DNA of 64,000 bases from an uncultured Isosphaeraceae bacterium (GCA_964507445.1 CAZDQF010000003.1:98578-162577), one strand, 5' to 3'; counted from the first letter of the stretch, positions 45,057-49,180 are shown. Notes: generated by a model not told the origin, from the sequence alone. Numbers and translations are program-made.

Positions 45057-45197
45057 GGAGGGACTCCGGGTTGGGGGATTCGGGTCCCCCCATTGTGGAC
45101 TCCGCAGTTCCCTGCGTCAAAGGTCACGAGACGCAGCTTATTATGGTCAGCGGAGAGGGCCCCGCGGTTCGCAAACTCGGCTACCCTCCTTGCAACA

Positions 45198-45692
45198 GTG
45201 GCCAGGAACACCAACAAGAAGCGTGACTCCGATGACCAGTCCTCGGTCAAGGTGGTCGCCCGCAATCGGCGGGCGCTGCACGACTTCCACGTGGAAGAGA
45301 CCGTGGAAGCGGGCATCGTCCTCGTCGGCACGGAGGTGAAGAGCCTGAGGAACGGCCTGGCCTCCATCCGTCAGGCGTTCGCCCGGATAGACAAGGGCGA
45401 GGCCTGGATCATCGGCGCCCACATCCCCGAGTACGGCGCCGCGAGCTGGACCAATCACGATCCGGACCGCCGTCGCAAGCTGCTCCTCCATCGCCGGCAG
45501 CTGCGCAAGCTGTCCCGGGCCGTGCAGATCGCCGGCCGGACCATCATCCCCCTCCAACTCCACTTCAACGAGCGAGGCATCGCCAAGGTCCTGCTGGCGC
45601 TGGTCACGGGAAAGCGCCGACACGACAAGCGAGCGGACGCGGCCAAGCGCGAGGCTCAACGAGAGATTTCCCGCACGCTCCGGGGCGGGTAA
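45198..45692 (+). CDS. smpB: SsrA-binding protein
   Basis: NRRA.HDF, EAGIVLVGTEVKSLR, RKLLLH, GKRRHDKR; GTG start inferred. Confidence 0.96.
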   Translation: MARNTNKKRDSDDQSSVKVVARNRRALHDFHVEETVEAGIVLVGTEVKSLRNGLASIRQAFARIDKGEAWIIGAHIPEYGAASWTNHDPDRRRKLLLHRRQLRKLSRAVQIAGRTIIPLQLHFNERGIAKVLLALVTGKRRHDKRADAAKREAQREISRTLRGG

Positions 45693-45739: not shown

Positions 45740-46093
<354 letters not shown>

Positions 46094-46164: not shown

Positions 46165-46560
46165 ATGGGCAATCTGGGTGACGCGCTCCACAAGGCGGGG
46201 CTCATCAGCGAGACGGAGCTGGCCAGGGCCAAGCAAGGGCGAGGGCCCGGGGACCAGTTGATGCGACGCCACGAGGTCGAGTCGGCGGCGACGGAAGCGC
46301 AGGCGGATGAAGCGCGCCGGCTGATCCGTGAGCGGGGGGCACCGGAGAAGGGTAAAGGCCGCAGACGCTGGCACTACGTCGCCGGGGACGGCAGCATTCC
46401 CAGCATGCAGGTGGACGACAGGCTGGCATCGCGATTGGAAGCGGGGCAGGCCGCCATCGCGACGGACGGCGAGCAGGCCCGCATCATCCCTCGCGAGGTC
46501 GCGGTCCAGGCCGACAAGCTGGACCCGTCAACGATCCTGTTCTGGATCGAGGACGCTTGA
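46165..46560 (+). CDS. DUF2058/YaiL-like small protein
   Basis: MGNLGDALHKAGLI N-terminus; L..G..AI...IIPREVA C-terminus. Confidence 0.6.
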   Translation: MGNLGDALHKAGLISETELARAKQGRGPGDQLMRRHEVESAATEAQADEARRLIRERGAPEKGKGRRRWHYVAGDGSIPSMQVDDRLASRLEAGQAAIATDGEQARIIPREVAVQADKLDPSTILFWIEDA

Positions 46561-47255
46561 TACTCGCCGCATGGATCACCTTCGCCGTCGGAGCCGCATG
46601 GATGCTCTGGTGGGGTCTCTGGGGCAGCGAACCGACCACCCCGTGGGTGCCCATGGCCATGCTGGCCATGGCTCCGGTCCTCGCCTGGGCCGGCGTTCGT
46701 AGCGAGCGTACAAGCCCTCGCCTGCTGAGCGGCGTCCTCCTCACGGCCCTGGGGGGGATCGCCTGGACCATGATCCTCGTGGTCATGGCGTTCCCCGGAT
46801 ACGACCAGCCGCGGCGGGCCCCCTCCTTCCGCTCCACCGACGCTGACGGCGCCGCCATCTCCTCAGAGAGCCTGGAAGGCCCTACGCTCCTGGTCTTCTT
46901 CCGCGGCAGGTGGTGAGCCGTCTGCCTCAAGGAGCTGGGCCAGCTCCGCGACCGCGCCCGGGAACTCCCCTCGCCGATCTGGGCTGTCTCCGCGTCCGAC
47001 CAGGAAACCGCCCGCGAGCTGCAACGCCGGTTCACGCCCCTGCGATTCGTGGCCGACGAAGAGCTGCGCATGATCTCGGCGTTCGGCGTCCGCCACGAGG
47101 GAGGCGGGCCGGACGGTGCCGATATCGCCTATCCCACTCTGGTGCTCGTTGACGCCGAGGGACAACTCTTGTGGTCCCACCGCGCGATCCGCAACACGGA
47201 CCGGCTCTCCGTGGACACCCTCATCGAGGAGGTCCGACGCTACGTCGAGCCCTGA
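46557..47255 (+). CDS. Putative selenoprotein: 3-TM membrane-anchored peroxiredoxin-like (AhpC/TSA, thioredoxin fold) protein, UxxC
   Basis: ORFs 46557-46916 and 47049-47255 share a frame with a single TGA (46914-46916) in LLVFFRGRW-U-AVCLKEL; hairpin follows; C-terminal YPTLVLVDAEG..W...DR. Confidence 0.85.
46917..46947 (+). promoter_or_regulatory. Candidate bacterial SECIS element
   Basis: GGAGCTG-GGC-CAGCTCC 7-bp stem (46931-46947) with G-starting loop 21 nt after the UGA. Confidence 0.65.
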
Positions 47256-49180
47256 CGCCCTCCCCCACCACCCCCGAGCCGCCGCACCGGCTCGTCACCC
47301 CGCTGCTGAGCCTCCTTCCGGGAGAGCCGGATGCGACCGCGGTGATCCACCCCCAGGACCCGCACGATGACCGCGTCGTCCCGAGAAGCGACGTCCGCCA
47401 TCCGTTCGGTACGACCCTGCTCCCACTCGGAGATGTGGACCCATCCGTCCGCCTGTTCACCCAGCTGCACCACGATCCCGGTGTCCAGGACCCGGGCCAC
47501 TCGACCCTCGTAGACGGCGCCGTTCTCGATCGGCGCGAACTGTCCGCGCACCCGCTCCGCACAGGCCTCCGCATCCGAACGACTCATCCCTGCGACCGAC
47601 ACCCGTCCGTCCTTGGTCACCTCGATGTCAACGCCGAACTGCTGCTGCAGCTTCTTGATGTTCGCCCCCTTGGGGCCGATGAACCGACCGACGCTGGCCG
47701 CCGGGATGCTGACGGACAAGGCCGCGGGCCCAGCGCCCCCGCTCCCCTCGCGGGGAGCTCCCAGCACGCCGTCCATGATCTCCAGGATGCGGGCGCGGGC
47801 CTCACGGGCACGGTCCAGGGCTGCCCCCAGGAGCTCGTGGCCCAGCCCGCCGATCTTGCTGTCCAGCTGCAACGCCGTGACCCCCTGGCTGGTCCCGCAG
47901 ACCTTGAAGTCCATGTCCCCCGCCCCGTCTTCCTCGCCGAGGATGTCGGTCAACAGCACCGCCTCATCCCCCTCCCTCATCAGCCCGATGGCGACTCCTG
48001 CCACGGATCGACTGATGGGGACCCCGGCGTCCATGAGGGCCAGGCTGGCTCCGCACACGGTGGCCATGGAGGAAGACCCATCCGAGCTGAGGATGTCCGA
48101 TTCCACCCGGATGGCAAACGGGAACTCCCGCTTGCCCGGCAGCACCGGGGCGAGGGCCCGGGCGGCCAGCGCGCCGTGGCCGATCTCCCGACGACCGGGG
48201 CCCCGAGGTTGGCGCACCTCCCCGACGCTGAACGAGGGGAAGTTGTAGTGAAGCATGAACCGATGCCGCTCGAGGCCGTCGAGGGTCTCCACCAACTGCT
48301 CGTTGGTCGGTGCCCCGATGGTGCACGTCACGGAGGCCTGGGTCTGCCCCCGATTGAAGAGGGCGCTCCCATGCGGCGTGGGCAGCCAACCCACCTGGCA
48401 ATGGGCCTCGCGCAAGGCCTCCGGGCTCCGCCCGTCCCGACGCAATCCGGACTCGAACAGCGCTCCGCGAGTCTCGGCCCGTTGCAGATCCTCCGGCGCT
48501 TCCTGCTCCGGAGGCGACCCCTCAGGGCCGCTCGCTATCCGCAGCTCGTCCAGCGCGGCGAAGGCCGGGTCCAGCGCCTCCCCGACCCCGGCCAACAGCC
48601 TCAGGAGTTCGGGCTCCTCCACCTCATCCGCGCCGCCATCGATCATCACTACGCCCGCTCGGGACGCGACCACCAGGACGCCGGATGCCGGGTCGGGCAA
48701 CCGCAGGGCGGCGACCGGACCGTTCCACGGGAGCGCCGACATATGCAGACACGCCGCGGCGCCGATCACCGCCAGCATGACGGGGTCCGGCCCGTCGCCC
48801 TGCGCCGAGAGGACCCAGGTGTGAAGCAGCACCTCCCGGCGGAGACCAGGCGCGAACAACGGTCGCACCCCGCGATCAATCATCCTCGAGCCGAGGACCT
48901 CTCGGTCGCTCATGCGCAGCTCGCGACGTGCGAAGCCACCAGGGATGCGCCCCGCAGCGGCGGCCTTCTCCCGGTACTCGACGGTGAGCGGCAGGAAGCC
49001 AGCGTCCTCGCGAGGTTCCTCGGAGACCGTCAGGCACGCCAGCACGACGACGTCCCGCGAGCGGACCAGCACCGAGGCTTCGGCTCGCGCAGCTACGGAG
49101 CCGGTCTCGAGGATGACCTCGTGCTCCCCCAGTTGGAATGATCGGACTTCGCTCATGTGGACCGCATGGTAGCGGCTCAC
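47240..49180 (-). CDS. pnp: Polyribonucleotide nucleotidyltransferase-like protein, divergent and shortened
   Basis: FLPLTVEYRE..AAGRIPGGF.RRE, RRDGR, HYNFPSFSVGE, RREIGHG, GSSSMA, DMDFKV, KH (IGPKG) and S1. Confidence 0.85.
   Translation of the reverse strand: MSRYHAVHMSEVRSFQLGEHEVILETGSVAARAEASVLVRSRDVVVLACLTVSEEPREDAGFLPLTVEYREKAAAAGRIPGGFARRELRMSDREVLGSRMIDRGVRPLFAPGLRREVLLHTWVLSAQGDGPDPVMLAVIGAAACLHMSALPWNGPVAALRLPDPASGVLVVASRAGVVMIDGGADEVEEPELLRLLAGVGEALDPAFAALDELRIASGPEGSPPEQEAPEDLQRAETRGALFESGLRRDGRSPEALREAHCQVGWLPTPHGSALFNRGQTQASVTCTIGAPTNEQLVETLDGLERHRFMLHYNFPSFSVGEVRQPRGPGRREIGHGALAARALAPVLPGKREFPFAIRVESDILSSDGSSSMATVCGASLALMDAGVPISRSVAGVAIGLMREGDEAVLLTDILGEEDGAGDMDFKVCGTSQGVTALQLDSKIGGLGHELLGAALDRAREARARILEIMDGVLGAPREGSGGAGPAALSVSIPAASVGRFIGPKGANIKKLQQQFGVDIEVTKDGRVSVAGMSRSDAEACAERVRGQFAPIENGAVYEGRVARVLDTGIVVQLGEQADGWVHISEWEQGRTERMADVASRDDAVIVRVLGVDHRGRIRLSRKEAQQRGDEPVRRLGGGGGGRQGST

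Follow-up and report, generated by a model that had tools for sequence, protein, structure and literature searches.

A probable membrane-anchored UxxC selenoprotein of Planctomycetota whose gene is cut in two at an in-frame UGA codon

Introduction

Selenoproteins that combine a peroxiredoxin-like (Prx-like) domain with a thioredoxin-like UXXC motif, in which U stands for selenocysteine (Sec), appear as a known family, the 'Prx-like protein', in the analysis of the Sargasso Sea (PMC1088965), and the Global Ocean Sampling analysis lists 225 sequences under 'Prx-like 1' (pfam00578, UxxC) (PMC2398784). The family is also included, as Prx-like thiol:disulfide oxidoreductases with pfam00578 and UxxC or UxxU motifs, in reviews (PMC9312934, PMC13188914), the former of which defines its subfamilies by domain and Sec motif, and selenoproteins have been reported in planctomycetes (PMC4807772). 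Here we analyse a gene of this kind, on the plus strand at 46557..47255 of a 64,000-nucleotide stretch of DNA (the window) from an uncultured Isosphaeraceae bacterium (GCA_964507445.1, CAZDQF010000003.1:98578-162577). An original prediction, made from the sequence alone, had read the locus as a hidden membrane-anchored selenoprotein divided by the caller of open reading frames (ORFs).

Since the window gene has both the domain and the Sec motif, which is the rule used in the reviews themselves, it is a member of the Prx-like UxxC selenoprotein class, in print since 2005. Residues 87-204 of its product match AhpC-TSA (PF00578, E = 4.7e-14, 52.8 bits against a cut-off of 26) and its motif reads U120-A-V-C123, with Sec first; Cys homologues at the Sec column and a hairpin with a G in its small loop are further shared traits. 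The difference lies in three predicted N-terminal transmembrane helices and a probable extracytoplasmic site. The word 'transmembrane' was not found in the literature searched for the Prx-like UxxC family; supplementary alignments lay outside that search, so anchored members may be listed there. Likewise, 'Planctomycet' was not found in the reviews searched for it.

Three other groups invite comparison. ResA, TlpA and CcmG (DsbE), which are held by a single membrane anchor, share with the window protein a thioredoxin fold with Prx-like insertions, a WCxxC motif in place of WUxxC, a cis-Pro-Thr pair equivalent to P193-T194 and a membrane tether. They differ in having Cys for Sec and one helix rather than three, the window gene is not beside cytochrome c maturation genes, and its product scores far under the corresponding NCBIfam cut-offs (ResA 23.6 against 170 bits, TlpA 20.9 against 230). 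Indeed, all NCBIfam models fall short of their cut-offs: the best match, the SelL-related redox protein NF040769, also has Prx-like domains but gives 46.8 against 120 bits over residues 94-179 only, so that the window protein is no member by the NCBI criterion, and the SelL motif is UxxU. The peroxiredoxins BCP/PrxQ and AhpE resemble the window protein in fold but are soluble and have a different active site, as described below. Closest in architecture are Cys homologues of 237-290 residues (such as P0004, P0007 and P0011), which share the N-terminal helices, the linker and the F[FY]RGxW-CxxC motif and go by the names 'peroxiredoxin' and 'redoxin domain-containing protein'; they have Cys for Sec and lack a hairpin after the codon, and to judge by these names none is characterised.

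Results

A single reading frame with one internal UGA

The plus-strand frame from 46557 to 47255 is open except for a sole internal TGA at 46914-46916, which, with TGA translated as U, lies within ...FFRGRW-U-AVC.... The 119-residue ORF at 46557..46916 begins with TTG and ends ...LLVFFRGRW-TGA; beyond this codon the same frame runs on as AVCLKELGQLRDR... as far as the next stop, TGA 47253-47255, and the 68-residue ORF at 47049 (47049-47255) is the in-frame C-terminal part of the same frame. The original prediction had proposed exactly this division and its repair, and its description is right in every particular. The read-through product has 232 residues and reads ...LLVFFRGRW-U-AVC-LKELGQL... 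around codon 120. Translation with TGA as U and full-length alignment to eight orthologues delimit a complete gene of 232 codons (TTG start, Sec codon 120) plus the stop at 47253-47255, and the family profile matches it over 4-247 of 248, with '1 TGA'.

The TTG at 46557..46559 is the probable start codon. It shares two bases with the TGA that ends the upstream DUF2058 gene (46558-46560), GAGGA precedes it at 46549-46553, and the equivalent position in orthologues holds ATG or GTG. The next in-frame methionine is M16, and a start there would cut helix 1.

Sec and Cys occupy the same column in homologues

Among 41 related genomes, the top eight matches to the read-through protein have a single TGA apiece, and it always falls in one alignment column, where all read F[FY]RGxW-U-xxC behind a hydrophobic N-terminus. 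Seven positions, R116, G117, W119, U120, C123, D167 and R216, are invariant in the nine aligned sequences. A scan of named genomes added Sec-forms from Verrucomicrobiales (1) and Planctomycetota (3), as well as Cys-forms in a Cellvibrionales metagenome-assembled genome (MAG), Devosia and Mesorhizobium. When the family profile was run against 301 genomes from across the phylum, 59 matches at E<=4.4e-31 were found among those listed, with a TGA in 54 of them (53 genomes) and none in 5. The TGA at the motif was confirmed in every distinct Sec-form locus that was fetched, 34 plus L070, 35 in all. Because the codon stands in the same motif column in 35 of 35 orthologous genes, the combination of frame and TGA goes far beyond chance, and the placement of the TGA at the first redox Cys of the motif, as first proposed, is borne out.

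An exhaustive profile search of 1.84 billion representatives returned 249 matches at E<=1e-30. Among the best 150 of these, 125 have CxxC at the motif, in most cases behind two to five hydrophobic segments at the N-terminus, and the same 150 include two stubs ending ...RGxW and two C-terminal pieces. Sec and Cys are therefore paired exactly, and the membrane-anchored architecture is often seen with Cys. A word-indexed search for homologues of near length gave nothing at E<=0.001, which, given the 249 profile matches, reflects a limit of sensitivity and not a protein without relatives. Thus the in-frame UGA (46914..46916, plus strand), which would encode Sec120 as the first residue of UxxC directly before helix 121-132, falls at a column where homologues have Cys, as expected of a selenoprotein. 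Its partner is Cys123 (TGC, 46923..46925, plus strand), the predicted resolving residue, which is invariant in 9 of 9 sequences and aligns with the peroxidatic Cys in BCP and, in ResA, with the second Cys.

A conserved hairpin follows the UGA

In addition to the features that had been proposed, a hairpin resembling a selenocysteine insertion sequence (SECIS) was found downstream of the codon by folding, comparison and covariation. In the window it is GGAGCUG-GGC-CAGCUCC at 46931..46947 (plus strand), beginning at nucleotide 18 counted from the U of UGA. This agrees with the SECIS criterion of the Sargasso Sea study, which asks for a stem-loop directly after the UGA and a G in its small apical loop (PMC1088965). 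Among the 35 distinct Sec-forms, 34 have a perfect stem of 6-9 base pairs (median 7) that starts 16-22 nucleotides after the U of UGA (one at 28), closed by a loop of 3-5 nucleotides that contains G in all cases, most commonly GGU, GGC, GUC or GGUC. A stem of at least 6 base pairs is present in only 2 of 12 Cys-forms, both with 7-nucleotide loops at other positions; these 12 are the members of a set of 23 loci (20 plus L036, L059 and L072) that match the motif pattern.

The hairpins were compared in an ungapped, codon-anchored alignment that is independent of structure fitting. In 16 in-register sequences 99.1% of the cells are paired, against 81.2% in column shuffles, and the covariation score is 0.432 against 0.144; neither value was reached by any of 500 shuffles. 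Changes on both sides occur at 4 of 7 stem pairs (for example G-C/C-G at 8:7), and sliding the partner by 1-3 columns lowers the pairing to 22-40%.

The host encodes the Sec machinery

The window belongs to contig C3 of a genome of 5.0 Mb in 40 contigs, 92% complete, whose closest named relatives are Planctomycetota MAGs; the host is a marine planctomycete. All four genes that a search for Sec decoding would look for are present: selC (tRNA-Sec; Rfam, 77 bits; ARAGORN, SeC(tca)), selA (6e-129), selD (7.6e-106) and selB, recognised by its C-terminal wing domain (1.8e-13) within a 713-residue frame. The first three stand side by side on the minus strand of contig C8 (195048-197414; L001, L009, L011), and selB is on C3. 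SelD is probably a selenoprotein too, to judge from the one in-frame TGA in its own frame.

Of the 301 genomes sampled across the phylum, 221 gave a SelA match (PF03841, E<=1e-20), so that the proportion of Sec users is very high for a bacterial phylum. Those with a match include 51 of the 53 TGA-form genomes and 170 of the remaining 248 (Fisher p 5e-6, a value overstated since kin are not independent).

Sec decoding against other readings of the UGA

Could the TGA be a true stop that separates a gene for a 119-residue membrane protein from one for a redoxin fragment of 68 residues or more? Gene callers do split the frame, both products are on public record, and TGA also serves as an ordinary stop for this gene and for its upstream neighbour. 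Such a stop, however, would cut the thioredoxin fold exactly at the active-site residue and leave, from 47049, a fragment without CxxC and without half the fold. The same cut would be needed in 35 genes, along with a covarying hairpin that the Cys-forms lack, and protein-level conservation extends over the 40 codons that separate the TGA from the next start. We therefore regard two separate genes as very improbable.

Even less credence can be given to a pseudogene mutation, a sequencing or assembly error, or readthrough with Trp or Cys. Nothing specific speaks for these, beyond the origin of the sequence in a metagenome-assembled genome and the tendency of contigs to drop rare variants. Contigs from two other studies carry the same TGA with no differences (X6 over 46557-46975, X7 over 46793-46943); the run X1, which gives full cover, may be the source and was left uncounted, and the X5 contigs do not reach the TGA. 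The codon is conserved across the phylum, the Sec machinery is complete, a SECIS-like element follows, and TGA-forms co-occur with SelA. The identity of the TGA in the contigs of other studies, together with the association of TGA-forms with SelA, leads us to reject both assembly error and pseudogene.

Some observations weigh against Sec decoding or leave the function of the gene without a clue from context. Taken by itself, the window hairpin is no stabler than shuffles of its G+C-rich stretch (z = 0.07), so the case for it rests on comparison and not on energy. L070 (G166:C2), a Sec-form reading FSRGVW-U-LFC, has a best hairpin of only 4 base pairs after its UGA; this gene may rely on another structure or be in decay. 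Two TGA-form genomes gave no SelA match, G239 (90% complete) and G256 (84% complete, in 990 contigs). Finally, no recurrent neighbour gene pointing to a substrate or reductant was found among 101 flanking ORFs at 34 Sec-form loci.

Sec decoding at UGA 46914-46916 is nonetheless well supported by the machinery, the Sec/Cys pairing, the hairpin and the independent contigs, as the original prediction of Sec insertion had anticipated. SelB and tRNA-Sec would recode the UGA, with the hairpin at 46931-46947 as the signal. Considering these lines of evidence together, we infer with high confidence that 46557-47255 is one gene for a 232-residue selenoprotein whose SECIS lies within the coding sequence.

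The redox domain has a peroxiredoxin-like fold with a ResA-like active site

The thioredoxin-fold AhpC-TSA/Redoxin domain occupies residues 87-232 (46815..47252, plus strand), as identified by Pfam and Foldseek; besides AhpC-TSA, Redoxin (PF08534) matches residues 87-218 with E = 5.5e-13. An AlphaFold2 model from the nine-row alignment (mean predicted local distance difference test score 88.5, predicted TM-score 0.82) shows a thioredoxin fold in which U120 directly precedes helix 121-132.

In a peroxiredoxin proper, the peroxidatic Cys is surrounded by Pro, Thr or Ser, and Arg. When the window protein is aligned by hidden Markov models (HMMs) to structures with the peroxiredoxin motif PxxxS/TxxC (2cx3, 2ywn, 3hjp), R116 falls in the Pro column, U120 in that of Ser/Thr, C123 in that of the peroxidatic Cys and P193 in that of the catalytic Arg, so that the characteristic trio is absent. 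Aligned instead to ResA (4nmu), WUAVC lies on WCKPC and P193-T194 on the cis-Pro-Thr, the CxxC plus cis-Pro loop typical of ResA, TlpA and DsbE. Pro193 (47133..47135, plus strand), which thus occupies the catalytic Arg column of peroxiredoxins and matches the ResA cis-Pro (LPT) in the HMM alignments to 2cx3 and 4nmu, is Pro in 8 of 9 orthologues. From these alignments of U120, C123, R116 and P193, the protein appears to be a Prx-like scaffold with the active-site logic of thioredoxin and ResA.

The original prediction had called the protein peroxiredoxin-like. That name holds for the fold only: FxRGxW-CxxC marks a Prx-like CxxC branch, not AhpC proper, and the Pro, Thr and Arg of peroxiredoxins are missing. 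The same selenoprotein could still act as a membrane-bound thiol or selenol peroxidase against peroxides or lipid hydroperoxides. AhpC-TSA is its best Pfam family, the nearest solved folds are the peroxiredoxins Bcp4 (3hjp) and AhpE (1xxu) (Foldseek, TM 0.82 on the target), the profile match to BCP (2cx3, 1.3e-23) is stronger than that to ResA (4nmu, 1.1e-17), and Cys-forms are called 'peroxiredoxin' in public records. Furthermore, Cys123 aligns with the peroxidatic Cys, and Sec is a good peroxide-reactive nucleophile. Against peroxidase activity stand R116, U120 and P193 in the three diagnostic columns and the CxxC plus cis-Pro pattern of ResA/TlpA-type oxidoreductases, which make it a doubtful assignment. 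We lean, by a modest degree of confidence, towards a thiol-disulfide (selenosulfide) oxidoreductase of the ResA/TlpA type that is not a true peroxiredoxin. In such an enzyme, Sec120 would be the attacking nucleophile and would then form a selenenylsulfide with Cys123, and the pair would cycle as in ResA/TlpA-type thiol-disulfide oxidoreductases.

Membrane anchor and orientation

Three transmembrane helices (residues 2-21, 30-49 and 53-76; 46560..46784, plus strand) are predicted from AlphaFold2 secondary structure (DSSP), hydropathy windows and charge counts, in a part of the protein that matches no Pfam family. The tethered N-terminus that had been proposed is therefore upheld as a prediction, but not its description as unusual, since the anchor is ordinary in the family and anchored Cys-forms are abundant.

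In the window protein, helices 2 and 3 are joined by an Arg-rich loop (RSERTSPR). In 21 of 25 parsed Sec-forms this loop has more Lys and Arg than the first (mean for loop 2, 3.0), and orthologues have basic N-tails (MRRSRM, MKK, MRK). By the positive-inside rule, the Lys/Arg-rich loop 2 suggests an N-terminus inside and a redox domain outside the cytoplasmic membrane, facing the periplasm, an orientation that we consider reasonably likely. The redox domain would then depend on electrons passed through the membrane; the DsbD/CcdA-type protein (DsbD_TM) encoded in the window genome could supply them, but its presence is unspecific.

With the opposite orientation, N-terminus out, the redox domain would lie in the cytoplasm and would be recycled by cytoplasmic thioredoxin. 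In the window protein no charged residue precedes helix 1 and three Arg follow helix 3 (PGYDQPRRAPSFR), and the charge bias is absent from the pooled, heterogeneous Cys-forms (27 of 53), all of which would suit this arrangement. The topology estimate also comes from a home-made hydropathy and charge count in which N-tails were taken from upstream-extended frames and one row (L041) was mis-parsed. On the other side are the charge distribution in Sec-forms and the basic tails of orthologues; moreover, the nearest oxidoreductase relatives by sequence, ResA, TlpA and DsbE, are extracytoplasmic, and a Cys relative (L036) has a lipoprotein-like signal sequence. A cytoplasmic domain thus seems the less likely of the two orientations.

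We also considered, as a tentative and rather improbable extension, that this is an unannotated, periplasm-facing family of three-helix UxxC redoxins whose membrane domain, in which Pro-Trp and Trp positions are conserved, does more than anchor the protein and brings the selenol-thiol centre to a partner in the membrane or to a lipid-phase substrate. If true, bacteria would have a selenium-based redox pathway outside the cytoplasm that is so far undescribed, and the family, which occurs in roughly a sixth of the sampled genomes as well as in a Verrucomicrobiales MAG, would be among the most widespread selenoproteins of Planctomycetota.

Genomic neighbourhood

The redoxin gene follows a DUF2058 gene (Pfam, 2.8e-10) on the plus strand. 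The listed ORF starts at 46045, inside the gene for transfer-messenger RNA (tmRNA), and the Pfam match begins at its residue 57; the ATG at 46165 (MGNLGDALHKAGL...) is a more likely start, which would place the gene at 46165..46560. The tmRNA gene lies at 45740..46089 (plus strand; ARAGORN, tag ANSNYALAA), and smpB, recognised by eye from the translation, is the ORF at 45093-45692 just upstream of it. The original prediction was thus correct in placing the redoxin start on the end of a DUF2058-like gene just after tmRNA. This adjacency is found in only 3 of the 35 Sec-form loci, those of the three closest relatives.

On the other side, a convergent gene for polynucleotide phosphorylase (RNase_PH, KH and S1 domains; 47240-49180, minus strand) shares the final 16 bases of the redoxin gene; it is also the neighbour in L015 and L016, from the two closest relatives. 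In the tally of flanking genes, polynucleotide phosphorylase is restricted to the three closest loci, Dus and LigT occur twice each, TPR four times and a VKOR-DsbA fusion once. With no conserved partner, and with DUF2058 adjacent in 3 of 35 loci, an operon-based assignment of function was rejected. The VKOR-DsbA fusion, a periplasmic disulfide-forming module on the same strand as and after the Sec-form of G229 (L055:2298-3614), is the only neighbour with an obvious link to thiol redox chemistry.

Evolution and public records

When 34 Sec-forms and 93 Cys-forms (database rows of 215-300 residues with the motif at position 100 or later; L070 left out) are placed on a quick maximum-likelihood tree, the two labels interleave: the minimum number of changes is 15, against a mean of 30.1 after shuffling, and well-supported branches force at least 4 Sec/Cys changes. 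One Cys-form (L059, G291), from a genome without a SelA match, is sister to the Sec-form L063 with support 98. The interleaving fits the known pattern of repeated exchange between Sec and Cys.

Relatives of the window genome (G024, G018, G020, G015; L027, L028, L029, L030) have other redoxin-fold genes with an in-frame TGA, namely a TxxU peroxiredoxin type (FTGG-U-TFE), a TlpA-like WGFW-U-SAC protein with one anchor, an RHYG-U-VFC type and a soluble FFRGTW-U-PYC form, the last with Cys counterparts in Devosia and Mesorhizobium (L038, L039).

Public records divide the gene in the same way as the ORF caller did. One copy is entered as MEE9391710.1 ('hypothetical protein') and MEE9391709.1 ('redoxin domain-containing protein'), another as RME02362.1 and RME02363.1 (both 'hypothetical'), and the 119- and 68-residue products of the window are themselves in public collections, unnamed. 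A search of the ESM Atlas with the N-terminal 100 residues of the Cys-form P0004 gave leads only (scores 0.76-0.80, below 0.9), among them several clusters of 50-78 'hypothetical proteins' of 124-143 residues, mostly from Planctomycetota and Acidobacteriota, which may be truncated stubs of further Sec-forms.

Discussion

The locus is best explained as a whole, and with good confidence, by a membrane-anchored Sec redoxin whose gene has been cut in two by gene callers. It represents no new kind of biology, UxxC Prx-like selenoproteins having been catalogued since 2005, and what it adds is modest. The membrane-anchored form carries Sec across Planctomycetota, in 53 of the 301 sampled genomes, and its active-site residues favour disulfide or selenosulfide exchange, probably outside the cytoplasm, over peroxidase chemistry.

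The gene is a clean case of standard annotation cutting a selenoprotein into a 'hypothetical protein' and a 'redoxin' fragment, an error that recurs in public MAG records. Because no NCBIfam model claims the family, a model built from these sequences would correct many of them. For the biology of the phylum, Planctomycetota emerge as heavy users of Sec, with this gene as a recurrent target, and the interleaved Sec- and Cys-forms provide natural pairs for asking what Sec gives to a membrane-tethered oxidoreductase.

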